Positions 28 to 57,610 of a stretch of DNA of 64,000 nt are shown here, piece by piece. The DNA comes from a virus. Its lineage: Duplodnaviria > Caudoviricetes. The position numbers and the translations under genes are program-made. Each line of letters starts with the position of its first letter. The first letter of the stretch is position 1. The DNA is taken from IMG/VR virus record IMGVR_UViG_3300037361_000044, positions 64,001 to 128,000 of that record; one strand, written 5' to 3'. A model generated the notes under the pieces. That model did no database searches. It saw nothing but the letters and a program-made list of their open reading frames with translations, and was not told the DNA's origin.

Positions 28-56
28 GGGCTAAGGAAAAGGGGCTTTTGGCCCCT
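28..56 (-). terminator. Intrinsic terminator with TAGCC tail
   Basis: Minus strand reads GGGGC-CAAAA-GCCCC then TTTTCC-TTAGCCC, just after the stop of 64..285. Confidence 0.7.
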
Positions 57-63
57 CCTCCGA

Positions 64-285
64 CTATCTTGTTCTGAGCTCCCAGGCGATGGCTTCCTCT
101 TTGGCCGTCGCTTTCTTTTTTAGCTCCTCGATAGTCTCTTTGAGGTACTCATTCCGCAGCTCCAAGTAGTGCGACCTATTATGGTACGGCAGCCCTTGTA
201 GCTCCTCCTCGTTGGACCCCAGCTCTGCTTCGAGCAGCGTCAACTGCTTCTTGATTTCCTTCAGCTCTGCTTCGTGCGTAGCCAT
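64..285 (-). CDS. Hypothetical coiled-coil protein
   Basis: 73 aa ORF, heptad-rich, purine-rich upstream region, followed by a terminator. Confidence 0.7.
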   Translation of the reverse strand: MATHEAELKEIKKQLTLLEAELGSNEEELQGLPYHNRSHYLELRNEYLKETIEELKKKATAKEEAIAWELRTR

Positions 286-304
286 CTGCGTACCTGTGTC
301 CTTC

Positions 305-571
305 CTAGGTCAGTCTGTAGCGGAGCAGCGTGCTCCCTCGCTTGTCCTCGTCTTCTTCAATGCCCTTCGGTAGAACCCACTCGAGACCGTCATTGGTCTC
401 AACCAGTCGTGCCAGGATGAATTCTGCATCGGCGTGGCTCAGGCTTGGATCCTTCTCTCGAAGAAACCTGCAAAGCGTGTCTTCTCGGCGCCACCGCCCC
501 TGCCCAATGTGCTTCTTCAGCAGCATAATCAGGCGGTACCTGGTCACTTGATGTCCTTGTAGATGGACCAC
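305..571 (-). CDS. Hypothetical protein
   Basis: ORF packed into the minus-strand gene string. Confidence 0.6.
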   Translation of the reverse strand: MVHLQGHQVTRYRLIMLLKKHIGQGRWRREDTLCRFLREKDPSLSHADAEFILARLVETNDGLEWVLPKGIEEDEDKRGSTLLRYRLT

Positions 572-873
572 ACCAATGCCCAGAAGCTGGAGCCAAGCAT
601 GAAGCCAAGCAGGAACACCATGAGCTGGGCCTGTCTGGTGAACGTGTTCATCTCCTTTTTGATGCCGTTGCGTAGGTTGCTGAAAGCGTGGTCAGCCTCT
701 TGTGGTTCACAACGCAGGCACTGGTACCCGGCGCTGATGTCACCAGTTCCCCACCTGCAGTGGGGGCATACTGGCTTGGAACAAGTGACACAGACTGCCA
801 GGTCCCATGTGCTACCGCATTTGTGACAGGCAGTAACAAGACAGGCTCCTGGTCGGACGATCCAGAGCAGCAT
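544..873 (-). CDS. Zn-finger protein with C-terminal TM helix
   Basis: Four CxxC pairs and a hydrophobic C-terminus; TGATG coupling to the upstream gene. Confidence 0.6.
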   Translation of the reverse strand: MLLWIVRPGACLVTACHKCGSTWDLAVCVTCSKPVCPHCRWGTGDISAGYQCLRCEPQEADHAFSNLRNGIKKEMNTFTRQAQLMVFLLGFMLGSSFWALVWSIYKDIK

Positions 874-1196
874 CAGGAACCGGCCTTGGTCTTGCGTAGG
901 TTGAATTCTACAACCCTCGCATGTTCCTGCATGGCTCCGAGCCATTCCTGCTCATCCGAGCCCATCAAGATCGGTGAGGTGTAGTTGATGAGTTTCCCGT
1001 GATAGATGTACTGGCAGTCGATGGCGTCGCCCCAGAAATGCAGTCGCCCATCGGCGTCTACGCGGGCGTACCAGCGCTCTCCGTGGATGTTGGTGAACAG
1101 CGAGCTGAAGACCACGGGGTCTTCTGGCTTGGGCTCCTCCCTCCAGGCCGGGTTGAGTCCGGTGTCTCTTCGTCGTCCTCTCGGTAGCTTCTCCAT
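873..1196 (-). CDS. Hypothetical protein
   Basis: ATG at 1196 with AGGAG upstream; this start avoids overlap with the plus-strand gene at 1248. Confidence 0.6.
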   Translation of the reverse strand: MEKLPRGRRRDTGLNPAWREEPKPEDPVVFSSLFTNIHGERWYARVDADGRLHFWGDAIDCQYIYHGKLINYTSPILMGSDEQEWLGAMQEHARVVEFNLRKTKAGS

Positions 1197-1247
1197 GAGT
1201 TCACTCCTGATTTGAATCTGGCGGCCGGTGGGTGTATCCTCTGGGGC

Positions 1248-1529
1248 ATGGCCGAAATGACCCCAGACTTGGCAGCAGTGACTGCCAACGCGTTCTATGA
1301 CGAGCTCTCGAAGTTGGCTGCGGCTGGCGCCCTCGGTAAGTTCTGGGATGGCGCCAAGCACGAGCTAGGACCAGCCATGGGAGCCGTGGGCGGGGCTGGT
1401 GTTGCCAAGATGGTCGGTGTTGACCCTCTGGCGGGCGCTGCCGCCGGCTACGGTCTTGGCGCGACCGGCGACATCGTGAAGGCCATCAAAGAGAAGCGAC
1501 TGGCCAGAACCCTAGCCAGTCACCCCTGA
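1248..1529 (+). CDS. Glycine-zipper protein, probably late-expressed
   Basis: GxxxG-rich; TTGAAT-17-TATCCT promoter ends 7 nt before the ATG. Confidence 0.65.
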   Translation: MAEMTPDLAAVTANAFYDELSKLAAAGALGKFWDGAKHELGPAMGAVGGAGVAKMVGVDPLAGAAAGYGLGATGDIVKAIKEKRLARTLASHP

Positions 1530-1534
1530 GGGAT

Positions 1535-1810
1535 CTAGCGGTCCTTCCAGCTGGCTCCTTGGATAGCCGCGCAATCGGAACACATGGGGTGTTGGCTGTG
1601 CTCTTCCTGCTGGGCAACGGTGACGTCAGCCCCACATTGGGTCTCGGCCACGTAGTCAGCGCGAATCTCTAGCACCAGGTGCCAAACCCCATCGGAGCAC
1701 AGCAGGTAACGCTTGCCCTTCCATCCGGGTACGAACTCGCCGAGTGGAAGTTGTAGTTGCCGCTGGTCGACAGCGGCCTTCTTCTTTTTTGGTCTCAGGG
1801 TGACGTCCAC
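1535..1810 (-). CDS. Hypothetical protein with Cys/His motif
   Basis: GTG start after AAGGAG; contains WH...CG...CxxC. Confidence 0.55.
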   Translation of the reverse strand: MDVTLRPKKKKAAVDQRQLQLPLGEFVPGWKGKRYLLCSDGVWHLVLEIRADYVAETQCGADVTVAQQEEHSQHPMCSDCAAIQGASWKDR

Positions 1811-2019
1811 AGCATAGCTCCTTCTTTTCGGCAGACAGCAGCGTCTGCACGGCATTCATCGTTGCACTTGAGGTGGTTCATCGAGCCCACCTGGTTCTTG
1901 GAACTGCAGTGTTGCTCGCAGCGTTGTTCACGTGCACGGCATACATCGTTCGGCGCCGCGAAGCTAGAGCTCGCCAGCAGAAGGTATGCGCAGCTCAGGA
2001 TCCTTGAGTGTTTTGGCAT
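1795..2019 (-). CDS. Secreted Cys-rich mini-protein
   Basis: Signal-peptide-like N-terminus ending SFA; six symmetrically spaced Cys. Confidence 0.6.
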   Translation of the reverse strand: MPKHSRILSCAYLLLASSSFAAPNDVCRAREQRCEQHCSSKNQVGSMNHLKCNDECRADAAVCRKEGAMLWTSP

Positions 2020-2500
2020 AGACTCCTTTGTCAATGAATGTTTGTACTAGCTCAGCGTATTGTTGAAGCACCTCACGCCCTATGCCCTCGTTGTGTAGAA
2101 GGTAGGCCATGCGCGAGGCCAAGTACAGCAGCTGCCGCAGCGGTGGGTCCACGCAGGCGGGGCAGTCCACCCCAAGCACCTCTCCCAGTGCCGCGGTCAT
2201 ATCCACGGTAAGCGGCACACCACGCGGCGACGTTAGCTCGTACAAAGCTTCTCGCACCTTGCCCGTGTAGCGCTTCTCTTCGTACTGACGCACTGTGCGC
2301 AGGTGAGTGCCATATTCGTTGGTACTCTCCTTGCCCACCGGGTAGTTTCCGCCAACATCGAAGACGTGCTTACTGGCGGTAGTAACCAGCGTGCGCCCGA
2401 CTTTAGCTATGGTCGTATGTAGCACCCGGTCAGCCGCGTTGTTGATGTTGTACCGAAGCACAACCACTTCCATGCCTACAGGCCAGTCAGCTATCGGCAT
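1964..2500 (-). CDS. Hypothetical protein
   Basis: 178 aa ORF overlapping both neighbours. Confidence 0.65.
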   Translation of the reverse strand: MPIADWPVGMEVVVLRYNINNAADRVLHTTIAKVGRTLVTTASKHVFDVGGNYPVGKESTNEYGTHLRTVRQYEEKRYTGKVREALYELTSPRGVPLTVDMTAALGEVLGVDCPACVDPPLRQLLYLASRMAYLLHNEGIGREVLQQYAELVQTFIDKGVYAKTLKDPELRIPSAGEL

Positions 2501-3050
2501 TGCTGAGTCCCTTCACGAGTGAGGCCACATCGTCGTATGGCGCTGGACCGAAATCCCATGCGTCCACTCCGAGGCTGATTGAGGCCGGTCCTGTGACCTT
2601 TGTCGTTGCGTGGCTGTGCCCGTGCAGCAGAATCTCTCCCTTGTGCCTACGAGGCCGAAGAGCCTTGTACTTGTCGGGCTTCTCCACACTGGCTGTCTTG
2701 TACGGGTAGTGGCTGAGGCGGCAGGGTACTTCGCCGATCTGCATGACCGCTTCGTGAAGCACTAAGCTGAACCCCATCGAGGCCATGGTTGTGTCTCCTT
2801 GGTCGTGGTTGCCCACGATGAGAATTTTGTAGCCGCAGAGCTCGGTGAGCATGTTTCTGTATCGTTCGGTGTCTCCTTTGAAGAAGCAGTCGCCAAGCCA
2901 GACAACTGTGTCATCTGGCCCGACCATACGATTGTAGTTGTCGGCTAGCGTCAGGTTCATCTCCTCAATGTCAGAGAAGGGTCTGTTGCAGTAGCCGATG
3001 ATGTTTGCGTGAGCAAAGTGTGGGTCTGAGAAGAAGGCTTTGATCTTCAT
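2487..3050 (-). CDS. Calcineurin-like metallophosphoesterase
   Basis: SDPHFAH, LGD, GNHD and HGHSH motifs. Confidence 0.9.
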   Translation of the reverse strand: MKIKAFFSDPHFAHANIIGYCNRPFSDIEEMNLTLADNYNRMVGPDDTVVWLGDCFFKGDTERYRNMLTELCGYKILIVGNHDQGDTTMASMGFSLVLHEAVMQIGEVPCRLSHYPYKTASVEKPDKYKALRPRRHKGEILLHGHSHATTKVTGPASISLGVDAWDFGPAPYDDVASLVKGLSNADS

Positions 3051-3322
3051 GCTGACTTTGGTTGCATCCCATAGGTGCGTTGAAAGAGGATGTGCTTTAC
3101 GATCATGCGCGCGCGGATGAGGCCCTTGTCCCCTTCGATGAACTTCTTCTTCACCGCATCAAAGGGAAGTCCTGCGGCGGTTGCTACGATGGTTAGGTAG
3201 AAGTCTCTATTCTCTAGGACCTTCTGTGGTGCGATGTCTGCGTCGTAGGCTGCTTTCAGCAGCAGTTGCTGGTCAATAGAGGCCTCAGAGTCTATGTTGA
3301 CTTTCATGGCGGGTTCATCCAC
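3047..3322 (-). CDS. Small protein resembling the PolA fingers subdomain
   Basis: ARMIVKHILFQRTYGM resembles PolA motif B (RxxAKxxxFGxxYGM). Confidence 0.55.
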   Translation of the reverse strand: MDEPAMKVNIDSEASIDQQLLLKAAYDADIAPQKVLENRDFYLTIVATAAGLPFDAVKKKFIEGDKGLIRARMIVKHILFQRTYGMQPKSA

Positions 3323-3357
3323 CTCTCTTATCCCCGAAAGGGTGCTACCCTTGCCCT

Positions 3358-3630
3358 ATGTCCGGCAAGCTCATTGAACTTCCCCGCAGACTCGAGTGGA
3401 AACCGATTGAGACCTGGATCGGACGGGTCAAGGGCACGGGCCTGTGCACGAAGGTCTCGGAGAAGCTCGAGGGTGCTGGCTTCGTATGGGAGGCGTGGAG
3501 TGGCTGCTCACTGGTTGCTGCCGGGGAAGCTCCAGACATGCTTGCGGGGCGTAAGGCCGCGGAAGAAGCTCTGGAATCGGGAGTGGTGGTTGTGCGCCCC
3601 TTGCCTTCCTCGAACAAGGGCGTACCTTGA
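3358..3630 (+). CDS. Hypothetical protein
   Basis: TGCTACCCT extended -10 ends 6 nt before the ATG. Confidence 0.6.
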   Translation: MSGKLIELPRRLEWKPIETWIGRVKGTGLCTKVSEKLEGAGFVWEAWSGCSLVAAGEAPDMLAGRKAAEEALESGVVVVRPLPSSNKGVP

Positions 3631-3682
3631 TTGGTGATGGATGGGGATGCCGCAGTCAGTGGCACTCCATCTGTCCCGTTTT

Positions 3683-3714
3683 GGGGGCTACAAGAAAGCG
3701 GGTTTCCCCGCCTC
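3683..3714 (-). terminator. Intrinsic terminator with TAGCC tail
   Basis: GCGGG-GAAA-CCCGC then TTTCTTG-TAGCCCCC. Confidence 0.75.
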
Positions 3715-3720
3715 CCTGCA

Positions 3721-3936
3721 TCAAGACTTGCTGCGAGCATGCCGCCGTGGCGGCCGTTCGAAGCTGGCTCCGCACCAAGGACAGAACTTCACAGCCACCT
3801 ACTCAATGGCGTAGCCCCGTATCACAGCTCCGCTTCCCCAATCCTCTGCCAGAAGTTGTACGTGCTGATGATATGGAAAAGGGCTGGGTGTATCGGCTAG
3901 GCGTAGGTACTTCTTTCCCGATTCACAGCAGTCCAT
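3721..3936 (-). pseudogene. CC...FCPxCG small protein with an in-frame TAG
   Basis: Translates as MDCCES...YAIE*VAVKFCPWCGAS...; TAG at 3801-3799; ends just before a terminator. Confidence 0.6.
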
Positions 3937-4183
3937 GTTGTTCCGTCGGTAGGGTGATGTCCACTAGGTCCAGGTCGAAAGTGGTGAGCTTGGTGCGCAC
4001 GCAGCTGGCGTTCAGGTCGTCCCAGGTGAGGCCTTCGCCATGCCCGTGCGTGGGTTGGTCACACCTGGAGGCACACTCGGCAGCATGGGCACAGGATTGC
4101 CGCTTCTCTTTGAAGTTCCCAACGCACTCGGGTGCGGTGTAGGAGAAGAGTAGTCCAAGGCAGTGTGGCTTCTGCGAGTTCAC
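3923..4183 (-). CDS. Cys4-domain protein
   Basis: PxC(L/F)GxxFSxxxxECxG...C...C domain shared with 4602..5696. Confidence 0.65.
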   Translation of the reverse strand: MNSQKPHCLGLLFSYTAPECVGNFKEKRQSCAHAAECASRCDQPTHGHGEGLTWDDLNASCVRTKLTTFDLDLVDITLPTEQHGLL

Positions 4184-4605
4184 AGCTCCACCTCGCTGAC
4201 CAGCTCAACTATGCTGGCTGCTGCCGTGCTGCTGAAGTCCCAGAGTGCATCTCGACGCTTCTGGTGCTGCACAGGGTCAAGTCCTCGAGGACGTACAGCA
4301 GCCGTGGTGATCCAGGAGCGGGCGGCCTCGAGCGCCTCATCCAGGTCTGAGCAGTGTCCGTGAGTACCAGCGCGATCCTTCTCCCACAGCCTTGCGTCGG
4401 CCACGGCCCTGGCCAGGATGTAGTCCCTTGACTCCCCTTTGAGCTCCTTGGCCACCACCGCCAAGTAGCTTCGAACGTAACCGACCAGCATGTACTTCAG
4501 GGAAGCACTGTGCCAAGCGTCTGTGAGCTCGCTCGCGGTTAGTTCACTCGGTGTCCCCGCTATAGGTCGTAGAGTCTTGCGTGTCTGCAGGTCTGAGTCG
4601 GTCAT
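4180..4605 (-). CDS. Hypothetical protein
   Basis: AAGGAG RBS and a GGCATAAG motif upstream. Confidence 0.7.
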   Translation of the reverse strand: MTDSDLQTRKTLRPIAGTPSELTASELTDAWHSASLKYMLVGYVRSYLAVVAKELKGESRDYILARAVADARLWEKDRAGTHGHCSDLDEALEAARSWITTAAVRPRGLDPVQHQKRRDALWDFSSTAAASIVELVSEVEL

Positions 4606-5696
4606 GGTGTGTCTCCTTCTTCTCTCTTATGCCGGAAACCGGCTCTCAGTTGCACCAAGTGCTGTTGGCTGTTCTCCTTGCAACCCTTCCATGCGTCGCA
4701 TTCAGGTACATCCGTTCTCCCTAAGCACTCCACTGCCGTTGCCGAGAAGGATTTCCCGAAGCATGGCGGCATAGTAGCGGACGAGCCAGAGCGGATCTTG
4801 CAAGCTCTGTGCAGGTCACAGGCTGGCTTGTACGGACTGGTGCCGCACTTGGTACTACCCACACAATCGGGTTCCTTAGTTGAGAAGTGTATTCCAAAGC
4901 AGGCCGGGGGTAGGGACGGCGTTGAGCTGCGTGGCAACTCCGTTGCAGCCGTTGCAGTGTTGTAGACTTTGGCTGCGATGTTCTCTTTGATGATGGTGCG
5001 AGCTTTGTCCTTGAGCTGTTGCAGCTCCTTAGCAGCCGCTTGTTGCTCGAGTTCCTTCTTCTGCAGCAGCTTCTGTCGTTGTGCTTCTTTACGGGCCGCC
5101 GCCTGGGTGCGTAACTCCACTGCGCGCAAATCTTCTACGAAGAGTCGGTCTGCTCTCTCTTCTGGGGTTTCATTGATCCAAGGAATGGCCAGTACGCGCT
5201 CAGGGGGTTTCTTGAATCCTTCCTCCCAGTGGGGGTCGAAGTCAGACGCCAGCGCGCTTGCTTTTTCCTCTTCTTCCTCTTCATCCTCAGGTTCCTCGGT
5301 TTCTGGGGTCCACGCGCCAAGCACCTTCTGCATTTCCTTGCGTATATCCTCTTGCAGGATCTGCAACGAATCCTCGGACCACAGCGTGCCGTAGGTCTCG
5401 TAGTCCGTTGCACGCTTCGACTTGCGGTGTTCACGTCCGTCCAAGATCATGCCCCGATACAACTCGTCGCGGCACTCATGGCACATTGGTGAATGCCCGG
5501 CTTTCATGGAGGCACGAATCTGGCTAAGTGGTCTTTGTGCGTATCGTCCGCAGGTGCATTGCAGCATCCATACGTTTCTACCCGCATAGTTCTCTACAAT
5601 GTGCAGAGCGGTCAGCTCGCCAAACCGGCGCCCCTTCACACCATCTTCATCCAGCGCCAGCTTCTCCTCTGGCAGTACCTGTGCTGTAGCTTGCAT
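4602..5696 (-). CDS. Multi-domain Zn-binding protein
   Basis: N-terminal GRRFGELT...WMLQCTCG module typical of phage HNH/AP2-associated domains, acidic linker, coiled coil, two Cys4 repeats; no HNH core seen. Confidence 0.7.
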   Translation of the reverse strand: MQATAQVLPEEKLALDEDGVKGRRFGELTALHIVENYAGRNVWMLQCTCGRYAQRPLSQIRASMKAGHSPMCHECRDELYRGMILDGREHRKSKRATDYETYGTLWSEDSLQILQEDIRKEMQKVLGAWTPETEEPEDEEEEEEKASALASDFDPHWEEGFKKPPERVLAIPWINETPEERADRLFVEDLRAVELRTQAAARKEAQRQKLLQKKELEQQAAAKELQQLKDKARTIIKENIAAKVYNTATAATELPRSSTPSLPPACFGIHFSTKEPDCVGSTKCGTSPYKPACDLHRACKIRSGSSATMPPCFGKSFSATAVECLGRTDVPECDAWKGCKENSQQHLVQLRAGFRHKREEGDTP

Positions 5697-5708
5697 AGTG
5701 GCTCCTTC

Positions 5709-5723
5709 GTTGTACTTATACCG
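5709..5723 (-). promoter_or_regulatory. GGNATAAG-class promoter motif
   Basis: CGGTATAAGTACAAC, identical to the 15-mer at 10836-10850 (+). Confidence 0.65.
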
Positions 5724-5739
5724 TAAATACATGGAATTT

Positions 5740-5776
5740 GGGGGCTACGAAGAAACGGGTTGTACCCGTCTCTTGT
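5740..5776 (-). terminator. Intrinsic terminator with TAGCC tail
   Basis: GACGGGT-ACA-ACCCGTT then TCTTCG-TAGCCCCC. Confidence 0.7.
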
Positions 5777-5810
5777 GAGCTACTATCGTCAAGCTCAACC
5801 GATGCCAAAC

Positions 5811-6194
5811 CTATTGGTGCAGTCGGTTCATCCAATCGAGCAGGATGATGTCCTCCGCAATGTCCTCCTCCAGCTCGGTGGCGCGCTTCTCCAGCATAGC
5901 GAGAACGTCGTCCCGATCCTCCTCGGGCATGTCCATGATTCGGTAGTACTCGCCGACAGACAAGGCAATCGCCGCTTCCTTCCCGTCGTTGCCCGTATTC
6001 ATGTCCAGCACGTATTTGGTGCTCAGGGCATGGAGGAGCGCGGCGGCAACCTTGGTGTCATCGACGTACACGCGACTATCCAGAAGCATCAACATGACAT
6101 CTGCCGGGATTGCTCGAATCCTGGCTTTGACGTCAATCTCCGGCTTGTCGTTGGCTGCTGAGGTTGGTGCTACTGGTTCTGCTTCGAAACACAT
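5811..6194 (-). CDS. Hypothetical protein
   Basis: AGGAG RBS; GGGATAAG motif at 6240-6247. Confidence 0.7.
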   Translation of the reverse strand: MCFEAEPVAPTSAANDKPEIDVKARIRAIPADVMLMLLDSRVYVDDTKVAAALLHALSTKYVLDMNTGNDGKEAAIALSVGEYYRIMDMPEEDRDDVLAMLEKRATELEEDIAEDIILLDWMNRLHQ

Positions 6195-6262
6195 GTGGTT
6201 CTATTCTCCTGGCGAGGGGGTTCTGTTCCTCTCACATCTCTTATCCCTGTTTTCCACGGTTT

Positions 6263-7249
6263 TTAGCGGCTCACAGTCTTTCCCTTGCTCCGTGGTGTAT
6301 TTTTGAACGCCTTGTTCAGAATGGTCGCTGGGTAAACGCCAACCGCGCGGCGCGCCCCGTTGATCTCCTCAGTAGCCGTCTTTGGTGGCTTGTGCCCGTA
6401 CTTGTCGATGAACAACGCGGTCGCGGCTCTACCCAGGGAGCTGTTGGCGACTGGAGCGTGTTCTGGCGTGTGGTTGCTGCGCCAGCTGGAGATGCTGTAC
6501 AAAGGTGCGCTTGGCGCAAGAGTGGCTGAGGGAGGATCTGTTTGCGCTGTCGAGGCAGTTGGCGTAACCACCACTATAGGCTTTGGCTTCTTCGCCTTGG
6601 CCGCGGCACCCTTGTTGGCAAGGGCCTTTTCACAGGTGGTTATGACCTCAGCCATTTGGGTTGTTATGGCGCGTGCCCTGTCTTCTAGTGAGGTTGCCTC
6701 CTCCAGCACCTGTTGCGGGCTTTCCAGCTCTGCTAGCTGCCCGCGCAGATCTTTTATGGCGTCCGTGTGTACGCGTACTTCTCGTTTCAGCTCCTGCACG
6801 TCCCCTGCTACAGCATCTAGGCTTGGGGCGACAATGATGCCTTGCTCCTGCTGCACAAGGGCCGTAGTCCGGTTGTACTCCTCCACAGCTAGTACATGGT
6901 TGAGCAGTAGGAAGAATGCTTTGACGTACTGTACGAGCAACGCACTGGCATTGGGGGTGTCCGACTTGCCGACGAGGAACATGACCTGGGGCTGGTTGAA
7001 GGCCATCTCTTCGAAGTCACGGGTAGCTCCTTGTCCCGCCTTGAGCTTGACCTGTACGGTACAGGTCTTGCCCAATTCTGCGAGTTTTTCGGCATGTCTG
7101 ACCGCCAGCTGCCTCAATGTGTCCTTGTCCTTGTACCCCAGCAGGTGGGCGAGGTCGGTGAGGCTGATGCGGGCTTGCTCTATGGCTTCCACCGTGGTCT
7201 CAGCCAGGTGGAATGGGATGCTGTTCTTGACGATTACGATGTCGGTCAT
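6263..7249 (-). CDS. Phage antirepressor-like DNA-binding protein
   Basis: ISLTDLAHLLGY N-domain, coiled coil, C-terminal LGR...KYGHKPPK...VGVYP domain; AGGAG RBS. Confidence 0.65.
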   Translation of the reverse strand: MTDIVIVKNSIPFHLAETTVEAIEQARISLTDLAHLLGYKDKDTLRQLAVRHAEKLAELGKTCTVQVKLKAGQGATRDFEEMAFNQPQVMFLVGKSDTPNASALLVQYVKAFFLLLNHVLAVEEYNRTTALVQQEQGIIVAPSLDAVAGDVQELKREVRVHTDAIKDLRGQLAELESPQQVLEEATSLEDRARAITTQMAEVITTCEKALANKGAAAKAKKPKPIVVVTPTASTAQTDPPSATLAPSAPLYSISSWRSNHTPEHAPVANSSLGRAATALFIDKYGHKPPKTATEEINGARRAVGVYPATILNKAFKNTPRSKGKTVSR

Positions 7250-7317
7250 GGTTCTCCTGGCAGTTGGATGTTCTGCCCTCAGGTTGCTTATCCCTGTTCT
7301 GCCTGCGCTTTTCGACG

Positions 7318-7351
7318 CAGAAAGGCCCCCACCGGCAACCGATGAGGGCCT
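7318..7351 (-). terminator. Intrinsic terminator without TAGCC tail
   Basis: AGGCCCTCATCGG-TTG-CCGGTGGGGGCCT then TTCT, downstream of the S53 gene. Confidence 0.6.
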
Positions 7352-7422
7352 ACTTGCAAGCAGCTTGGGGTCGACTGTAAAGTTTTGGACCCCTGATTGT
7401 AAAGTTTCTGAACAGCCGGTCG

Positions 7423-8586
7423 CTAAACGGTCTTGCCATCCACGGTAACCGACAAGGCATCGGTGACCACGATGAGGCGGGTGGTTGCCGTCGGCGCGGG
7501 GACAGGTACTGGAGTCGGCGTAGGCGCCACGGATCCTTGTAGGGCAGCGAGTAGCTTGGTGCCAACAGGCACGCCCATACCCGTGCAGCAATCGTAGCCT
7601 GCGCGCGCGGCGTAGGTGCCATTGTTGCCCACGGTGATGTCACGGCTCCAGCCAGCTAGGGCGTAGAGCTTATCGTTCATGAAGCCAACGTTCTTGCCCA
7701 AGGCTTGGCCCAAGCAGACTGAGAGGGCCGCCCACATGGGAGCAACTGCGCTTGTTCCTCCAATTACCAGCTGCTGCCCATCCACGATGATGACCCAACC
7801 GGTGTCGGGATCGGCGTTGCCACCCACGTCGGGTACACCGCGGTATTTGGCACCTGGTACGTTGGCTAATCTTTGCCAGTCCGGAAGGAGGAAGTGGGAG
7901 CTCACACCCCCGCCAGTGGCACCACCAGCGCTGCCGTCATTCCATACCGTCTCGTTGATGGGTGAGGTGGCGACCAGTGCTGTGCCTCCACAACCAAGCA
8001 CGTACGGGGAGCTGGAGGGGAAGTCTACATTCTTGCCAGGAAGCCCATCACCGGACCCGTTGTCCCCAGCCGCGGCTGTGACCGTGATTCCTGCGGCGGC
8101 AGCCTTAGCGAAGGCCGTGTTGAAACTGGCCATGACCGCGTCGGTCCAGTCCTTCTCTGGAGCTCCCCACGAGATGCTGATGGCATCCATACCGTCGGTG
8201 ATGGCCTGGATGATGGCCGCTAGGAATCCTGCGTCGGTGTTCGGAGCTGTGTAGCAGTGGAGCTCAGCACCTGGGGCCATGCCACCGATGACGCACAAGT
8301 CGAGCATCACTTCGCCGTCGGCCCCATCTGGTCCGTCCGAGGTGTTTTTGGCACCTTGAATCGAATGGAACAACACGGGCTTGACCGTGAGGCCCAAGCT
8401 CTTGAAGTAGGTGTCGAGGTCTGCTTGGTTGTAAGCTCCCCCAAGTTCGATGACGGCAACTTTCTTGCCGGTACCGGTGGAGCCTGGCGGGAATCCGTAG
8501 AAGGCAGCCAACTGTTTCGGAGTGTAATTGGTCCCGGTAGTGTGGTTCTTGAACCGTCCGTGCTTGAGGTATGAACGTAGTTTCAT
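7423..8586 (-). CDS. Sedolisin/kumamolisin-like S53 serine-carboxyl peptidase, catalytic domain only
   Basis: EVMLD (Glu/Asp), SISWG, AAGDNG, GTSAVAP (Ser) and the Ca site DITVGNN...GYD..TGMG. Confidence 0.92.
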   Translation of the reverse strand: MKLRSYLKHGRFKNHTTGTNYTPKQLAAFYGFPPGSTGTGKKVAVIELGGAYNQADLDTYFKSLGLTVKPVLFHSIQGAKNTSDGPDGADGEVMLDLCVIGGMAPGAELHCYTAPNTDAGFLAAIIQAITDGMDAISISWGAPEKDWTDAVMASFNTAFAKAAAAGITVTAAAGDNGSGDGLPGKNVDFPSSSPYVLGCGGTALVATSPINETVWNDGSAGGATGGGVSSHFLLPDWQRLANVPGAKYRGVPDVGGNADPDTGWVIIVDGQQLVIGGTSAVAPMWAALSVCLGQALGKNVGFMNDKLYALAGWSRDITVGNNGTYAARAGYDCCTGMGVPVGTKLLAALQGSVAPTPTPVPVPAPTATTRLIVVTDALSVTVDGKTV

Positions 8587-8587
8587 C

Positions 8588-8635
8588 TTGGGTACTACTT
8601 CCTTTTGGCGGAGTGCCTAGGTAAGTAGTACCCAA
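8588..8635 (-). promoter_or_regulatory. RBS-sequestering hairpin
   Basis: Perfect 13-bp inverted repeat TTGGGTACTACTT/AAGTAGTACCCAA ending 1 nt before the S53 ATG. Confidence 0.7.
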
Positions 8636-8657
8636 ACTGCAGCTACGGTCAATCTGG

Positions 8658-9260
8658 TTACTTCAAATCATGCGCGGCTGCAAAGGCATGGTGCTCTGCC
8701 TGGTCCCATTGGTTTGTGGCATTTCCATGAATGACGTGTCCGAGCTCGTGCTCGAAGGCAGTACTTTCAAGTGGATCTGTCATCTTGTCGTAATCCACCA
8801 TGAAGCAGTGTGTGCCGCTGATTGTGAAGCCCTTGCACAACCTGCCAGCCATTGGCGACACCGTTTCGTTCAGTGTCTTGTCGAACCACACCCAGTTGAT
8901 CTCCGATTTGACTATGGCCTCTGCGTTGGGGTGGTACGGGGTCCATCCTTCGATGGTTCTCTTGATGAGGGTATCCAGCACGTAATTGTCGTGCGGAAGA
9001 AGGTAGCCACCAGGGCTAACCATGAAACCGTAACGTGGGTACCAGATGAACTGGGAAAGCCACTTCTTACGCTGCAGCGCAAAGACTAGCCAGATACCGA
9101 TGAAGCAGAGGCCAACTACAGCAGTGAGGCACAGCCCCTCTTTTGCGTGTGGGCCCTGCACGCCGGAGAAGGCTGCGTAGATGAGTAGCCCTAGCGACAC
9201 GATGCCGCCAAGACCGATGGTGAGTAGATCGACTAATCGAAACCAGCTGGGCTTCTTCAT
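8658..9260 (-). CDS. Membrane-anchored HExxH metallopeptidase-like protein
   Basis: Two N-terminal TM helices; HELGH motif. Confidence 0.7.
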   Translation of the reverse strand: MKKPSWFRLVDLLTIGLGGIVSLGLLIYAAFSGVQGPHAKEGLCLTAVVGLCFIGIWLVFALQRKKWLSQFIWYPRYGFMVSPGGYLLPHDNYVLDTLIKRTIEGWTPYHPNAEAIVKSEINWVWFDKTLNETVSPMAGRLCKGFTISGTHCFMVDYDKMTDPLESTAFEHELGHVIHGNATNQWDQAEHHAFAAAHDLK

Positions 9261-9277
9261 GATGCGAGGCTAACACT

Positions 9278-9309
9278 GGGCTAAGAAAAAGCCCACAGGC
9301 GGCCCTTTC
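9278..9309 (-). terminator. Intrinsic terminator with TAGCC tail
   Basis: Imperfect stem then TTTTTC-TTAGCCC. Confidence 0.55.
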
Positions 9310-9317
9310 CCAGCGCT

Positions 9318-9809
9318 TTAGTTGGCCTCTGCTCCTGGAGGTGCCGGCGCCGCCCCAGGCTTCGGTCCAAGAATGACGCCGAACAGGTTCTTCAGCGCGT
9401 TCTCTCGGTCTACTCGCATCTGGTCGACGTCCGCGTTCTCGTAGTGCGCCATCGCGTGGGCGACGTACATCGAGCCCTTTACGTGGGCTCCTGCAGCAAC
9501 GCGCCCAGCAAGCGTCAAGAGCATGCACAGTAAATCCTGCGCCACCATGTCCATCACGCAGTCCAACGCCTCGGTTGAGATCGGCGTACCTGCGTCCGCT
9601 TGCGCTAGGCCCACTGCCTCGCACCCATCAATGCCACTGGTCATGGCCACGCTGTAGGCGTTGGCGAGTTTCTCTTCAAAGTCATCAATGGCCGCGGCGT
9701 AGATCGCCACCAGTCGCTCAGCGATCTCGGGAGCAACGAGCTCCTTCAGCTTCTCCCTTAGTCCATCTGCGCCATTGATCTCAGACACATCCTTACTTGA
9801 CTTGCTCAT
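9318..9809 (-). CDS. Hypothetical protein
   Basis: 163 aa ORF; AGGTG RBS. Confidence 0.7.
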   Translation of the reverse strand: MSKSSKDVSEINGADGLREKLKELVAPEIAERLVAIYAAAIDDFEEKLANAYSVAMTSGIDGCEAVGLAQADAGTPISTEALDCVMDMVAQDLLCMLLTLAGRVAAGAHVKGSMYVAHAMAHYENADVDQMRVDRENALKNLFGVILGPKPGAAPAPPGAEAN

Positions 9810-9844
9810 ATCATCACCTGGTTTCTGGCCGTTTTGCTACCTAG

Positions 9845-10771: not shown

Positions 10772-10808
10772 ATCCACCTCCTGGTGGGCTGCAATTACAA
10801 CCAAGTTG

Positions 10809-13394: not shown

Positions 13395-13439
13395 ACGAGG
13401 GCCGCCCGCAAGGGCGACCTTTGCTAGCTCACAGAAGGG

Positions 13440-13631
13440 ATGGGGATCATGAATTCAACATTGGCGAAGGCATGGGAAGTACTGCTGGTGATGCAGCAGT
13501 GGGCGTGGACCGGCTTGCGGTGGTTTTTGATGGTGATGGGTGCGGCGACGTTGTTGGCCCTTATTGTCGGAATTGGAGTCGGCAAGTACTTCTCGAACAA
13601 GGGCATAAGCGGAGCTGAAGGAGACAAGTAG
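13440..13631 (+). CDS. Small membrane protein
   Basis: Long hydrophobic segment. Confidence 0.55.
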   Translation: MGIMNSTLAKAWEVLLVMQQWAWTGLRWFLMVMGAATLLALIVGIGVGKYFSNKGISGAEGDK

Positions 13632-13633
13632 TT

Positions 13634-16496: not shown

Positions 16497-16550
16497 GGTA
16501 CCTGGGTCTCGGTTCTTTCCCCCTCTACGGGGCCCAGGTACCTTTCTTTT
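16497..16550 (+). terminator. Intrinsic terminator upstream of glf
   Basis: GGTACCTGGG...CCCAGGTACC stem then TTTCTTTT. Confidence 0.65.
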
Positions 16551-16559
16551 AGGTAGCCA

Positions 16560-21423: not shown

Positions 21424-21514
21424 GGCACACGGTTGTTCGTTCTCGGGCTAGTGACGCACTTGTGGTAGGTGGATTGGAGGCTCCCGGCACACCCCGGGGG
21501 CCTCTCCTTTTTTT
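21424..21514 (+). ncRNA. Candidate small RNA
   Basis: TTGCCC-16-TAGGAT promoter, about 90 nt with no complete ORF, 11-bp hairpin plus T7. Confidence 0.45.
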
Positions 21515-21540
21515 AGCCCCTCGGAATGCTAGGATGAGCT

Positions 21541-22197: not shown

Positions 22198-22233
22198 GGG
22201 GGCTAAAGAAAAGACGGGTGTATTCGTCTTTTC
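22198..22233. terminator. Bidirectional terminator, TAGCC tail on the minus strand
   Basis: GAAAAGACG...CGTCTTTTC between convergent genes. Confidence 0.75.
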
Positions 22234-22317
22234 AGTGAATTGCGTTAGCGGTACTAACGCAAAGGACCCACTCAAGGCATTCCCTTAGGGTCTCAAAATG
22301 ATACCATAGGACTTGTA

Positions 22318-22913: not shown

Positions 22914-22950
22914 GGCTAAGAAAGAAGCCAACTTGGTAGTTGGTTCTTTC
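22914..22950 (-). terminator. Intrinsic terminator with TAGCC tail
   Basis: CCAACT-ACCA-AGTTGG then CTTCTTTC-TTAGCC. Confidence 0.7.
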
Positions 22951-22956
22951 CCCACA

Positions 22957-23709
22957 CTACGCGCAGTACGTAGCGTAGTAGTCGTTGCAGCCCTCCTCTG
23001 TAGGGCCCAGGAAGTTGGGATCGAGTGGCACCCCATCACTCCCTATCCTGCGGCAGAACACCTCACTGTTGGAGTTTCTGCACATTAGCGTAGACCCGTC
23101 AACTGCCGCGTGGCAGCTGCTCGTTGAGGCCAACCACAAGTCTCTGCAAGTAACGGAACCCCAGACAAAGGTGGAGCCACCAGTGCCTGAGCTACCACCA
23201 GCCGTGCTTGTGCCGCCTGCGGCAGTGGTGCCACCGGTGCTCTGCGCACCGCCAGTAGCCGTGGTTTGCACCGAGGTGCTCCCACCTGTTGCCACCACGC
23301 TGGTCGTAGTTACGACTGTGGTGCCGCCAGCGCTTGTAGTGGTTGAGGTCTTTCCGCCTGTGGCAGTACTTCCGCCGGTACTGGTTGTGGTCGTCCCTCC
23401 TCTGGAGGAAGTGCCACCCGTTGCTGTGGTGCCTCCTGTTGAGGTAGCCCCGCCCGTTGCCGTAGTCGTGCTCGGCGCTGCGCCGCCGGTCGAGGTAGTG
23501 GCTTTCAACGTAGATCCGCCGACTCCTGTGACTTTGCTACTTGATCCACCGGTGGCTACGGTTGAAGCCCCTCCGGGGCTTGTACTGGTAACCTCTGCGG
23601 GCTGCCCAGCCGCCGCCGCCGCGTCAGTGGTACTCTCGAAGGAGCCGACGTCATCGCTACAGGCAGACACTAGAAAAGACATTACAAGCAGGTAGTTCAT
23701 GGTTTTCAT
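22957..23709 (-). CDS. Thr/Gly-repeat lipoprotein with Cys-rich tip
   Basis: Lipobox LVSAC; many (A/S)TGG repeats; six-Cys C-terminal domain. Confidence 0.8.
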   Translation of the reverse strand: MKTMNYLLVMSFLVSACSDDVGSFESTTDAAAAAGQPAEVTSTSPGGASTVATGGSSSKVTGVGGSTLKATTSTGGAAPSTTTATGGATSTGGTTATGGTSSRGGTTTTSTGGSTATGGKTSTTTSAGGTTVVTTTSVVATGGSTSVQTTATGGAQSTGGTTAAGGTSTAGGSSGTGGSTFVWGSVTCRDLWLASTSSCHAAVDGSTLMCRNSNSEVFCRRIGSDGVPLDPNFLGPTEEGCNDYYATYCA

Positions 23710-43159: not shown

Positions 43160-43192
43160 GAAGGCCGGGACCCCACAGGTCTCGGCCTTTCT
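43160..43192 (+). terminator. Intrinsic terminator without TAGCC tail
   Basis: AAGGCCGGGACC-CCACA-GGTCTCGGCCTT then TCT. Confidence 0.65.
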
Positions 43193-43206
43193 GGTATAGG
43201 TGGCAC

Positions 43207-48872: not shown

Positions 48873-48907
48873 GGGGCTAAGAAAAAGCAGGTTGTCCTGC
48901 TCTTTCC
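48871..48907. terminator. Bidirectional terminator, TAGCC tail on the minus strand
   Basis: AGCAGG-TTGT-CCTGCT; minus-strand tail TTTTTC-TTAGCCCCC. Confidence 0.75.
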
Positions 48908-48912
48908 CATGG

Positions 48913-49104
48913 TCACCCTGCGGCGACCATGTTCGAACGTGCCCGCGACTGGCGCACTACTTCCAGTAGGCACGCTAGGAGATACTTGGGGCGGCTTTGT
49001 ATCGGCAAGTGCTTGGTGTCCCATGCTGTGCTCACATGGCCACATCCAGTGCATTGCCAAACAGCGCCGTCCCGGTGAATCTCCCCTTTACAGATCGTAC
49101 TCAT
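48913..49104 (-). CDS. Small Zn-ribbon protein
   Basis: C...WQCTGCGH; start uncertain. Confidence 0.5.
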   Translation of the reverse strand: MSTICKGEIHRDGAVWQCTGCGHVSTAWDTKHLPIQSRPKYLLACLLEVVRQSRARSNMVAAG

Positions 49105-54463: not shown

Positions 54464-54764
54464 TTGTTTTCTCCAGGTTCTGCAGGGCTCTTGAGAAGTC
54501 CGTGCGTGCCTTGGAGAAGTGTACCCCAAAACCACGCCCAACGCTGGGCGCTGGGTGGGTTCCCCGGTACTGGACCAGGTTGCTTGTATTGGCCAGCCGC
54601 GGTCTGGTGAGTACGAACTTCCCGAAGCCGGCCAGTACAACCGGTTCACCCCGTGCCACCGCGTCTATGATCTTCCGCAGGAACAGCGCTGTGGTGCAGG
54701 CGGTGTCAGCTAGGGTGCTGCCAACCTCCTGAGCCACCTCTCTATCCAGATCGGCCTTGTTCAT
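54444..54764 (-). CDS. HU/IHF-like DNA-binding protein
   Basis: MNKADL...GEPVVLAGFGKF. Confidence 0.85.
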   Translation of the reverse strand: MNKADLDREVAQEVGSTLADTACTTALFLRKIIDAVARGEPVVLAGFGKFVLTRPRLANTSNLVQYRGTHPAPSVGRGFGVHFSKARTDFSRALQNLEKTNGQARS

Positions 54765-54766
54765 GG

Positions 54767-55510
54767 TCAGTCCTCGTCGGGTACCTGAATGCACTCGAAG
54801 GGGAAGCCAAGCGCGCCGCCCTTGAAGGCAGCTTCGGGAACAATCTTCAACCAGCGTGGAGGGTCGTTCCGGAAATAGAACCCCCGCGACTGCGCCTGGT
54901 CCTTATCCGCCTTGGACACCATAGCCTTCACGGTAATGTGCGGCTCCATCGCTTGCTCCACAAGCTCCACCAAGTCGTAGCCAAGCTCATGCACCTTGGT
55001 CAGAAGCCGGGCGATGATGTCGCAGTCCGTGAGCGCGCGGTGGGCGGAGATGACAGGTACGCCGTGCGCCAGCGCTATGGATACCAGGCTCTTGCTGCCG
55101 TACTTGTTGGGCCAATGGATGTTGGCTAGCGTGCACACCCACTTCTTCTCGTCCACCAGACCCTTGTCGATAGTACCTGCCTGTTTCAGCATGCGCTTGT
55201 CGAAGGTCGCACTGTGGGCAAGTACGGCGCCAGCCCTGTCCATGAGATCGTGCAGTACTGCAGACGCTGGCGAGTTCTCTAAGGCCGTGGATAGGTCCAG
55301 CAGCGACTGCGGTATCCCGTGCACTTCTTCCGCTGTCATCCCACCAATGCTGCTGGGTGGAGGGGTCTTCACGGGGATGAGCGTGGAGAACGTGGTTACT
55401 GGTGCCGCGTGGACCAGGCTGTACAGAATCATGGCCACTTCGACTACTAGGTCTGAGTGGCGGAAGCCGGTGGTCTCGGTGTCGGTGATGAGTATTAGGT
55501 CTAGTGACAT
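54767..55510 (-). CDS. DEDDh 3'-5' exonuclease (DnaQ-like)
   Basis: DTETTG, HSATFD and HRALTD. Confidence 0.9.
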   Translation of the reverse strand: MSLDLILITDTETTGFRHSDLVVEVAMILYSLVHAAPVTTFSTLIPVKTPPPSSIGGMTAEEVHGIPQSLLDLSTALENSPASAVLHDLMDRAGAVLAHSATFDKRMLKQAGTIDKGLVDEKKWVCTLANIHWPNKYGSKSLVSIALAHGVPVISAHRALTDCDIIARLLTKVHELGYDLVELVEQAMEPHITVKAMVSKADKDQAQSRGFYFRNDPPRWLKIVPEAAFKGGALGFPFECIQVPDED

Positions 55511-55517
55511 GTGGTTC

Positions 55518-57572
55518 CTACTTAGCTGAGCCCCAGGAGGGACCCGATCCGACGTCGGCAAGCAGTGGTACGCCGATGTCCGTGGGGAATGGATGTTCCA
55601 TCCACTCGTGGATTCTGTTCTTTACCTCAGGTACGCTGTCGATGGGGCACTCTCCAACGATTTCATCGTGGACCTGCAGGCACATGCGATAGCCGTATTT
55701 CTCGCGAAGCTCCACGTCTTGGTAGAGGTGAATCATCGCCATCTTGCAGGCCTCTGCGGCGGTACCCTGAATGGGCATGTTGGAGGCTTGGCGTTCGGCT
55801 CTGAATCGAATGTAGTCCTTCTTGGCGTTGATGTTGGGTAGGCGTCGGCGCCTGCCAAGGAACGTGTACGCAGCTCCGTGCTCGCGGGCTAGTTCGCCTG
55901 CCTCGTCGAAGAACATCTGCACGGCCGGGTATTTGGCCATGTACTGTTCGATCTTTGCTTCAGCCTCCTCCACGGAGCAGCCCATGCGTGCAGCCATGGC
56001 CTTCTCCTTCATACCGTAGTTCAAGCCGAACCCGATGGTCTTGGCGTCACCACGTGCTTTGAGGCATTGCAGCACGTACTTGGTCATCTCCGTAGGCGGT
56101 AACTTCCCTTCCTTGACCTGCTTGTCCACCTTCTTGGCTAGTACAATATCGTCGTAGGGAAGGTCAAACACAAGGGAGGCGTTACCCATGTGGATGTCCC
56201 AGTTCCTGTGAAAGATGGCCATCATGGCCGGTTCCTGTGAGGCAGCTGCCAGGATGCGCATCTCTAGCTGCGAGTAGTCAGCCACCACCATCGAATAGCC
56301 AGGCGCGGCAATGAACGCGTTACGAAGGTGGAACCTATCCTTCTCGCCAGTCGTGACGTTCTGCATGTTAGGGTCGCTCGAGGAGAGGCGTCCCGTGCGT
56401 GCTACGTCTTGGTTCAACTTCATGTGCACACGGTCTTCGCTATCGAGCCGTGCCGGCATCTTCTGGATGTACGTACTGTACTGCTTGGAGATGGCCTCGT
56501 GCTCTACCAAGAGCTTGGCCACCTTTCCTACGGTGGTTCCTGGCCTATCGTCGGCAATCCACTGTAAGAACTTCGCATCGACTGACGGCTTCTTTACACC
56601 TGACTTGCCGCCCTTGGTCATCTTGTGCGGTCGTATGCCGTTCTCTTCGCAGAAGTACTTGGCTAGACCTGGACCACCGGTCTTCATGAGGCGCCCTGTG
56701 AGGCTGTTTATCTCGAAGCGCAGTGCCTCCATGTCACTGATGATGCTGGGTGTGATCTTCTCCAGGTAGGGGCGGTCCACTCGTAGACCGTTTCTCTCGC
56801 ATGCGTAGAGGACACGGGTGAATGGCACCTCCGTCTGGTCGTAGTAGTCCTTCATCGTTCTGATGTAGGGCCACTGGTCGTCGTAGAAGCTCTGTACAGG
56901 GGTCTCCGACATCTCCTTGGCTAACAGCTGTTCCAGTTTCCACGTGCCGTAGGCGTCGTTGGCAGCGTAGTCGATGAGCTTCCCCATGTTCTCTTGCTCT
57001 GCCTTGTGCAGCACATCGAGTGGGGAGATCTGCCGGAACATGCCGCAGCCGGTCTTCTTGCAGTAGCCAGTCTTGTTCTCGTGGGCAGCCTGCGTGGCAC
57101 CACAGCGGCATACGCCCTTGCGTACTCTGCCGAAGGTGTCTTCGAAGTTGGTCCATTTCCAACCCAGCATGCGTAGCGCCATCTCCTTCAAGCCGTGTGG
57201 CTCCTCGTCGTACAGGAGCGCGTGCATTACGGAGACATCTACGAGTCTCCCGGCGATGTTGACACCGCGGTTGGCGCACATGTGAACATCGAACTTTGCG
57301 TTGGCGAAGATCCAGTTCTTGTTCAAGTCCGCGAAGGAGTACTTGAACGCCTGCATGGTTTCCGCCGGCATTGTGAGTCTGCGGTCTCTCCCGTTTGAAC
57401 TTGTCCAACTCAAGGACCAGTAGAACGGCTTGCAACGCATGAGGTCGAGACCGTCGGTCTCGGTGTCGATGGCCACCTTCTTCTGGTCGTAGACCTCTCT
57501 GACGACGCCATCTAGGGCTGGGTCACTCAGCGTGTAGTACTCGGCGTCTGGTACGTCTAGGTTCCATGCCAT
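55518..57572 (-). CDS. polA: Family A DNA polymerase (3'-5' exonuclease plus polymerase)
   Basis: DTET, NAKFD, YAAND, TGRLSS, DYSQLEMR, RGDAKTIGFGLNYG and QVHDE. Confidence 0.96.
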   Translation of the reverse strand: MAWNLDVPDAEYYTLSDPALDGVVREVYDQKKVAIDTETDGLDLMRCKPFYWSLSWTSSNGRDRRLTMPAETMQAFKYSFADLNKNWIFANAKFDVHMCANRGVNIAGRLVDVSVMHALLYDEEPHGLKEMALRMLGWKWTNFEDTFGRVRKGVCRCGATQAAHENKTGYCKKTGCGMFRQISPLDVLHKAEQENMGKLIDYAANDAYGTWKLEQLLAKEMSETPVQSFYDDQWPYIRTMKDYYDQTEVPFTRVLYACERNGLRVDRPYLEKITPSIISDMEALRFEINSLTGRLMKTGGPGLAKYFCEENGIRPHKMTKGGKSGVKKPSVDAKFLQWIADDRPGTTVGKVAKLLVEHEAISKQYSTYIQKMPARLDSEDRVHMKLNQDVARTGRLSSSDPNMQNVTTGEKDRFHLRNAFIAAPGYSMVVADYSQLEMRILAAASQEPAMMAIFHRNWDIHMGNASLVFDLPYDDIVLAKKVDKQVKEGKLPPTEMTKYVLQCLKARGDAKTIGFGLNYGMKEKAMAARMGCSVEEAEAKIEQYMAKYPAVQMFFDEAGELAREHGAAYTFLGRRRRLPNINAKKDYIRFRAERQASNMPIQGTAAEACKMAMIHLYQDVELREKYGYRMCLQVHDEIVGECPIDSVPEVKNRIHEWMEHPFPTDIGVPLLADVGSGPSWGSAK

Positions 57573-57610
57573 GGCTAAGAGAGAAGGCCCCCACAGGTGT
57601 AGGGGCCCTC
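57573..57610 (-). terminator. Terminator with TAGCC tail abutting the polA ATG
   Basis: GGCCCC...GGGGCC stem then TTCTCTC-TTAGCC-ATG. Confidence 0.65.

Follow-up and report, generated by a model that had tools for sequence, protein, structure and literature searches.

TAGCC tails after hairpins in an uncultured phage with a fused RNA polymerase: a candidate clade-specific terminator word

Background

In Escherichia coli a bacterial-type RNA polymerase releases its transcript 7-9 nt after the stem of an intrinsic terminator. T7 RNA polymerase has a class II pause/termination signal consisting of ATCTGTT plus a U-run, and the vaccinia early termination signal, TTTTTNT (U5NU), is read by the capping enzyme/NPH-I on the early-class polymerase only. 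For mimivirus, Byrne et al. in 2009 reportedly set out a "hairpin rule" for mRNA 3' ends, and Arbiol et al. in 2010 are said to have described the PeSL (promoter-early stem-loop) cassettes of T4-type phages. Termination by phage-encoded multisubunit RNA polymerases is almost unstudied. The subject of this report is a short word, TAGCC(C), that follows a hairpin and a pyrimidine tract at a series of sites in the uncultured phage record IMGVR_UViG_3300037361_000044 (G000; 190,298 bp, 58.6% G+C), and was first noticed in a window of 64,000 bases comprising bases 64001-128000 of that record. Positions are those of the window unless given as genome positions. With slightly less than even confidence, and on the strength of sequence comparison, the tailed sites are read as clade-specific intrinsic-type terminators in which the phage polymerase would pause, or release its RNA, at TAGCC.

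Occurrence, enrichment and placement

The whole genome contains 17 sites at which a hairpin, a tract and TAGCC(C) follow one another, the T of TAGCC lying at genome positions 9209 (-), 10386 (-), 10435 (+), 35662 (-), 62002 (-), 64033 (-), 67690 (-), 69747 (-), 73283 (-), 85514 (+), 86205 (-), 86918 (-), 112879 (-), 121577 (-), 136311 (-), 156148 (-) and 177651 (+). When 8-mers enriched between rough gene calls were counted without bias, GGGATAAG ranked first and TCTTAGCC, CTTAGCCC and TAGCCCCC ranked second to fourth. TAGCC itself occurs 352 times on both strands of the 190 kb, or 9.2e-4 per position, and for 25-40 terminators with a 3-position window 0.07-0.11 hits would be expected (P for at least 15 hits < 1e-27). 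In a loose context, defined as any hairpin of -8 kcal/mol or below plus a pyrimidine tract, TAGCC was found 13 times against 2.5 expected (p 2e-6), and only T-runs achieved comparable scores. The motif is therefore enriched over chance by 8-mer rank, by terminator window and by loose context alike. Terminators carry either exact TAGCC or unrelated sequence, with few intermediates, some of them TAGCT. A built-in consensus terminator scan of positions 1-20000 listed none of the minus-strand tail sites there, an energy-only hairpin scan was swamped by G+C-rich noise, and stricter finders miss some of the sites with bulged stems.

All 17 sites are in the sense orientation, and 13 of them lie 30-150 nt past the stop codon of a gene on the same strand. 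Nine face a convergent gene, whereas the other eight belong to co-directional arrays. At five of the nine convergent sites the convergent gene ends within 6 nt of the tail, and at genome position 35662 the TAA of GGCTAA is itself the convergent gene's stop codon.

Anatomy of the sites

Stems and loops differ at all sites, only the flanks being shared, and the tail is fixed, with an aligned consensus over the 17 G000 sites of C-TTT-Y-T-Y-(T/G)-TAGCC-C-C. The mean folding-energy z-score for 43 sites from six genomes is -3.6. Mobile palindromes resembling repetitive extragenic palindromes (REP), bacterial interspersed mosaic elements (BIME) or miniature inverted-repeat transposable elements (MITE) were rejected as a source, the copies having no palindrome sequence in common. 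The U-tracts are, as the original prediction had it, interrupted, being 7-9 nt long with only 4-6 T and with interruptions by C (sometimes G), and they are weaker than the tracts of E. coli terminators located with the same finder. A feature that the first reading missed is the base-pairing of the tract with upstream purines. In the predicted fold the pyrimidine tract is paired with a run of purines on the 5' side of the G+C core (GGGAAAGA and similar), and therefore the helix usually ends 0-2 nt before TAGCC, as predicted for 31 of 43 sites. A tract C faces a G 44 times, compared to 33.7 +/- 3.6 when purine tracts are swapped among sites, a figure reached in 5 of 2000 permutations, so the "interrupted U-tract" is one strand of a helix under selection. 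Inspection of the aligned sequences places the T of TAGCC 7-9 nt after the G+C core in 13 of the 17 G000 sites, and 11-14 nt after it at genome positions 9209, 10435 and perhaps 85514. Pairing of TAGCC with an upstream GGCTA was considered and rejected, as it is seen only at the two-sided site 10386/10435. The sites thus have the stable G+C-rich hairpin, sense orientation and position at the 3' end of a unit that characterise an intrinsic terminator, but a definition in which nothing is required beyond hairpin and U-tract does not describe them, there being an invariant TAGCC at a fixed offset.

The same anatomy can be read as a processing signal, in which a phage or host endoribonuclease binds the hairpin with its single-stranded UAGCC and cuts, leaving hairpin-protected upstream mRNAs and new downstream 5' ends in the manner of T7 RNase III sites and the mimivirus "hairpin rule". 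The helix reaches the base of TAGCC and its basal part covaries, and a conserved single-stranded word beside a variable stem is typical of protein-RNA recognition; moreover, three sites lie inside operons whose downstream genes need read-through, and in at least two TAGCC(A) is followed immediately by an ATG that lacks a Shine-Dalgarno sequence. Processing nevertheless has no need of the T-rich tract that stands beside the G+C core at every site, at the nine convergent junctions it matters that the polymerase be halted, RNase III usually acts on helices longer than the 12-16 bp of these sites, and no candidate nuclease was identified. Taken together these points make processing unlikely.

Link to a promoter class

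The genome encodes, at genome positions 140812-147213, a 2133-residue fused beta-beta' RNA polymerase (Pfam Rpb2 domain 6 and Rpb1 domains 2 and 5). Pfam Rpb1 domain 1 is matched at its positions 169-250 only, and the N-terminal part of beta' is, as judged from these profile matches, not recognised. A sigma factor gene lies at genome positions 26952-27722 (Sigma70 region 3 match). The motif GGNATAAG occurs 29 times in the genome, many copies having GYAA 15-16 nt upstream, which defines a sigma-28-like promoter class, GYAA-N15/16-GGNATAAG; sigma-28/FliA promoters have the form TAAA-N15-GCCGATAA. Thirteen of the 17 tails have a same-strand GGNATAAG no more than 2 kb upstream, a count that averaged 2.5 and never exceeded 9 when placement was randomised 5000 times, so that the "private transcription grammar" proposed on first inspection is a fair description. 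On the gene map, promoter, gene(s) and tail form cassettes, and many of these stand as antisense islands among the long structural operons of the plus strand. At hairpins shared by a cassette and a late operon on opposite strands, TAGCC is on the cassette side only, the exception being 10386/10435, and the internal terminators of the late operons are tail-less.

The late plus-strand structural genes have their own -10-like words, TAG(G/A)AT or TAnnnT, 5-25 nt before the start codon (for example at 43190-43206, 40440-40470 and 35300-35327), and these words appear to be a second promoter class distinct from GGNATAAG. A role for the tail as a late promoter on the opposite strand was rejected on the grounds that the late genes have these words and not GGCTA. 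The idea of the tail as an upstream promoter element was likewise rejected, since GGNATAAG lies 20-21 nt downstream of only two of the 17 G000 tails (plus a duplicated pair in the related record G007).

The link between tail and promoter class raises the question of whether a separate protein is involved. A phage DNA- or RNA-binding protein might recognise TAGCC(C) and stop only polymerase that had started at GGNATAAG, either as a roadblock of the Reb1/TTF-I type for RNA polymerase I or as a class-specific factor resembling that of the vaccinia early signal U5NU. Such a protein would account for a tail that is all-or-none and bound to one promoter class, for its restriction to the cassette side of bidirectional hairpins, and for late operons that combine TAnnnT-like words with tail-less terminators. 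However, 5-8 conserved bases are few for a DNA-binding protein, units driven by GGNATAAG contain tail-less terminators too, hairpin and T-tract are already enough for a bacterial-type polymerase, and no candidate factor was identified; a dedicated roadblock or factor is thus considered quite improbable. It is also the case that GGGCTAAG, the reverse complement of the commonest tail, is only one base away from the promoter octamer GGGATAAG, the invariant A being replaced by C, and the holoenzyme might dock on it without melting, so that the tail would act as an antisense promoter-like decoy or insulator. Six of the seven specified bases match, for which chance is estimated here at roughly 0.02 allowing for alignments, and the 8-mers most enriched between genes include both CTTAGCCC and CTTATCCC. 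Against this, there is no GYAA 15-16 nt upstream in the GGGCTAAG orientation, and in relatives the TAAG part varies (CTAGCC, CGTAGCC, TTTAGCC) whilst TAGCC is constant, so the cores of the tail and promoter motifs overlap only partly. A decoy is therefore regarded as very unlikely.

Conservation in relatives and comparison with bacteria

A search with the phage DNA polymerase found 12 loci in IMG/VR at 38-72% identity. The pattern YYYNTAGCCM is more frequent than its reversed control in nine of ten records, the exception being a 27-kb fragment (G010), and the hairpin/tract/TAGCC architecture is present in the five records whose contexts were examined: at least 10 tailed sites in G001, 7 in G003, 2-3 in G006, 3 in G007 and 3-5 in G008. 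The fused polymerase was found in all five of these relatives at 50-74% identity. Enrichment of GGNATAAG was seen in G001, G003 and G007, and in G001 and G003, where the coordinates give cassettes like those of G000, it lies 250-1650 nt upstream of most tails. In a likely orthologous pair, the site at 48875 and locus L142 of G003, the flanks CATGGGAAAG and TTTTCTTAGCCCCC, one on either side of the stem, are conserved, but the stems are unrelated. In G007 (IMGVR_UViG_3300017971_000006) the fused polymerase is matched in two pieces within one 2477-residue open frame at 2022-9446, which suggests an insertion of about 330 residues, perhaps an intein or extra domain, near query residue 790.

The strict pattern CTTTYYYKTAGCCC has 8 matches in G000 and 11 in G001-G004 (1-4 each), with none for the reversed control. 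It has one match in about 21 Mb of Acidobacteriaceae sequence (four genomes and one metagenome-assembled genome, MAG) and none in E. coli K-12. None of 61 E. coli terminators located with one finder is followed by TAGC or TTAG, TTTA and TTAT being seen instead, which upholds the earlier statement that canonical intrinsic terminators have no such downstream word. The strict-pattern counts, the E. coli control and the spread in G+C content of the relatives (52.5 to 60.4%) argue, short of proof, that the signal is phage-borne. A scan of IMG/VR for the exact 14-mer CTTTTTCTTAGCCC was uninformative, yielding scattered single chance hits only, mostly coding.

Acidobacteriaceae were chosen as a hint to the host by homology only. 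The best bacterial matches of the phage peptidase are in this family, at about 50% identity, and G+C content is similar, which hints weakly at Acidobacteriaceae as the possible host family. A 45-kb contig filed as "uncultured archaeon LFW-28" (CABMCB010000100.1) encodes a peptidase 70% identical to that of the phage, and is probably a contig from a related phage that was binned into an archaeal MAG.

Among cultured phages there are distant kin, Salmonella phage Arash and Vibrio phage D69, whose polymerases are about 30% identical. TTAG follows 8 of 27 perfect-stem terminators in Arash and 9 of 39 in D69, compared to 0 of 61 in E. coli (Fisher 3e-5 and 1e-4), but for many of the Arash cases of T-run+TAG the explanation is either a ribosome-binding site, AGGAG, that begins where the T-run ends, or a CTAA stop on the opposite strand. 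TAGCC proper is limited to 3-5 sites in each phage; those with hairpin and T-run are at 134669 (-), 101583 (-) and 70764 (-) in Arash (OQ632216.1) and at 147912 (-), 85638 (-), 56090 (-) and 53540 (+) in D69 (OZ195729.1). Because of the confounding by AGGAG and CTAA stops, extension of the tail to these phages is a lead only and was not counted as support. The RNA polymerase beta gene of Arash has as its stop codon the TAA of GGCTAA; the paper describing this phage contains no promoter or terminator data.

The Arash cases, together with the convergent stop codons in G000, bring up the possibility that the tail is a by-product of other constraints, such as convergent stops (GGC-TAA), ribosome-binding sites, host-type terminators or recent copying. 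For the G000 clade this explanation failed, and is hardly credible: eight sites have no convergent gene, the tail holds no Shine-Dalgarno word, the stems are unrelated and the sites are hence not copies of one element, and the tail is kept across phages whose DNA polymerases have diverged to the extent given above whilst being absent from the sampled bacterial genomes.

Proposed mechanism

The original inference that the tail is a sequence-specific element, tied to the direction of transcription and paired with the GGNATAAG promoter class, stands. Of the roles that it offered, pausing, termination, antitermination and processing, we infer termination rather than processing, with the phage polymerase as probable reader, and the following sequence of events can be envisaged. 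Tailed terminators would close the transcription units begun at GYAA-N15/16-GGNATAAG promoters. In each, a hairpin of free sequence continues from its G+C-rich top into a basal purine:pyrimidine helix of which the "interrupted U-tract" is the 3' half, and TAGCC(C) begins 0-2 nt past the helix and 7-9 nt past the G+C core, at the predicted point of RNA release. The fused beta-beta' polymerase or its sigma would read the word and its G+C-rich continuation, either in the DNA or in the bases transcribed last. The enzyme, which the U-poor pyrimidine tract could not pause unaided, would thereby be halted where that tract ends, whereupon the upstream purine tract would zip up with, and displace, the whole RNA:DNA hybrid. 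This pause-and-zip reading agrees with a word that is all-or-none and stands at a fixed offset, with covariation in the basal helix, with the promoter link and with conservation throughout the clade, and also with the polymerase's unrecognisable beta' N-terminus. In E. coli polymerase the zinc-binding domain modulates intrinsic termination. More doubtful, though possible, is the specific proposal that TAGCC(C) is a dedicated sequence-specific termination (pause/release) element read by the phage's single-chain bacterial-type polymerase, the beta' N-terminal part of which is unrecognisable, or by its sigma.

Several observations weigh on the other side. Transcription has to pass three of the tailed sites, one of them at the ATG of the DNA polymerase gene, and the orthologous hairpin upstream of that gene in relatives is without TAGCC, so some sites can do without the tail. 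Units driven by GGNATAAG also contain terminators that have no tail (7318 and 61335), and the promoter-class rule is therefore not absolute. A G+C-rich downstream duplex would be expected to hinder forward-translocation termination by E. coli polymerase, and TAGCC mismatches the E. coli consensus pause (G-10, Y-1, G+1). Finally, Acidobacteriaceae as the host family is a hint drawn from peptidase homology.

Individual sites in the window

At all nine sites of the original prediction a hairpin was found to be followed by a T/C tract and then by TAGCC(C), the orientation being as described. The terminator at 29..75 (-), with TAGCC at 29-33, lies 3' of gene 64-285 (-) and has the stem GGAGGAGGGGCC-AAAA-GCCCCTTTTCCT followed by TAGCCC, the convergent plus-strand gene stopping 1 nt past the tail. 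That at 3686..3725 (-) (TAGCC at 3686-3690) reads GCAGGGAGGCGGGG-AAA-CCCGCTTTCTTG and then TAGCCCCC. The terminator at 5743..5785 (-) (5743-5747), 3' of gene 5811-6194 (-), has a hairpin, TTTCTTCG and TAGCCCCC, and a promoter, GGTATAAG, starts at 5722, 25 nt past its TAGCC. An internal site at 9279..9320 (-) (9279-9283), 3' of gene 9318-9809 (-), reads GGGAAAGGGCC...GGGCTTTTTCT and TAGCCC, the next gene, 8658-9260, having no promoter of its own. The only plus-strand member, 21470..21520 (+) (21514-21518), lies 3' of gene 20356-21366 and consists of GGAGGCTCCCGG-CACACC-CCGGGGGCCTCTCC, TTTTTT and TAGCCCC. At a convergent junction 3' of gene 22318-22845 (-), the terminator at 22201..22245 (-) (22201-22205) has its tail on the cassette side only, and the plus-strand gene 21541-22197 stops 4 nt past that tail. 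Close by, 22914..22960 (-) (22914-22918), 3' of gene 22957-23709 (-), reads GGGGAAAGAACCAAC...GTTGGCTTCTTTCT and TAGCCA, with a promoter, GGAATAAG, starting at 22892, 26 nt past TAGCC. The terminator at 48875..48920 (-) (48875-48879), GGGAAAGAGCAGG-ACAA-CCTGCTTTTTCT followed by TAGCCCCC, closes a replication-gene unit at its convergent junction with the structural operon. At 57573..57620 (-) (57573-57577) a hairpin, TTCTCTCT and TAGCC run directly into the ATG of gene 55518-57572, which encodes the family A DNA polymerase and has no Shine-Dalgarno sequence there.

Two weaker variants had been reported, one of which is real: at 16500..16558 (+) a hairpin and CTTTCTTTTAGG (ending TTTTAGG) precede TAGCCA at 16554 and then the ATG of gene 16560-17654. 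The other, said to lie near 13425, was read directly at 13396..13450 (+), 3' of gene 12750-13394 (+), as GCCGCCC-GCAA-GGGCGAC, CTTTGC and TAGCTC, and so has TAGCT and not TAGCC. Reading of the sequences also bore out the absence of a tail from three terminators: 7290..7345 (-), cited as 7318, 3' of the S8/S53-like peptidase gene (TTTCTGCGTCG, then a promoter GGGATAAG at 7294); 43160..43200 (+), within the structural operon (TTTCTGGTATAGG); and 61310..61375 (-), cited as 61335, upstream of the DnaB-like gene (CCCCCCTTTTTCACC).

An ATG directly after a tail (TAGCC or TAGCT) with no Shine-Dalgarno sequence occurs at genome positions 182560 (-) and 189498 (+) as well as at window positions 16554 (+) and 57573 (-), and may represent an unusual context for translation start. 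The hairpin and T-tract that immediately precede this DNA polymerase gene are kept across relatives (L009-L018), and in L011, L013/14, L016 and L018 the tract runs into the ATG with no Shine-Dalgarno sequence; this hairpin could be an attenuator or a translational operator.

Genes in the window include, besides the family A DNA polymerase and the peptidase, the DnaB-like helicase. Outside the window the genome yielded no tRNA gene, no Rfam 15 family was matched in the whole window at the gathering score, and megablast of 24 kb against cultured phages gave no match. The two ends of the record (genome positions 1-150 and 190150-190298) have the GGCATAAG context in common, which points to a terminal repeat or to a circularly permuted genome whose assembly overlaps itself.

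Significance and comparison with known systems

Among the papers searched, none was found to describe a TAGCC-type terminator tail. A fixed word at the release point, conserved in a deep clade and attached to one promoter class, provides a concrete handle that can be mutated. If the proposed reading is true, a phage family would possess a private promoter and a private terminator code, and for the first time a multisubunit polymerase of bacterial type would be seen to have a sequence-specific terminator word; and should the polymerase or its sigma read TAGCC, a bacterial-type polymerase would have evolved a sequence-coded terminator, and an orthogonal promoter-terminator pair would be available to synthetic biology. 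The motif pair GGNATAAG and hairpin-TAGCC can meanwhile serve in annotating transcription units across this group of uncultured phages of about 190 kb.

The tailed element is best regarded as a variety of intrinsic terminator and not as a new kind of system. It shares with bacterial intrinsic terminators the G+C-rich hairpin followed by a T-rich tract at gene 3' ends and the predicted release point 7-9 nt after the stem, and with bidirectional ones an upstream A/G tract that mirrors the T tract; it differs in the addition of invariant TAGCC(C) and in a tract that is short and C-interrupted, with the C paired to upstream G. As with the T7 class II signal, a phage polymerase would stop at a conserved short DNA word by a U-run, but the T7 enzyme is single-subunit, needs no hairpin and has its word upstream of the U-run. 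The vaccinia early signal is comparable in that the multisubunit polymerase is encoded by the virus, the termination word is specific to the virus, and the class of terminator is tied to the class of promoter, although the signal acts as RNA, without a hairpin and through a known factor, with termination 20-50 nt downstream. The mimivirus hairpins and T7 RNase III sites resemble the phage sites in that a virus possessing its own transcription apparatus ends most of its genes with hairpins of variable sequence, and differ in being processing sites with no T-tract or fixed flanking word. PeSLs are also repeated stem-loop and promoter modules that bracket small accessory genes, but they are longer conserved sequences thought to promote recombination, whereas the phage tails conserve only about 12 nt, have stems that vary and are mostly not followed by a promoter.

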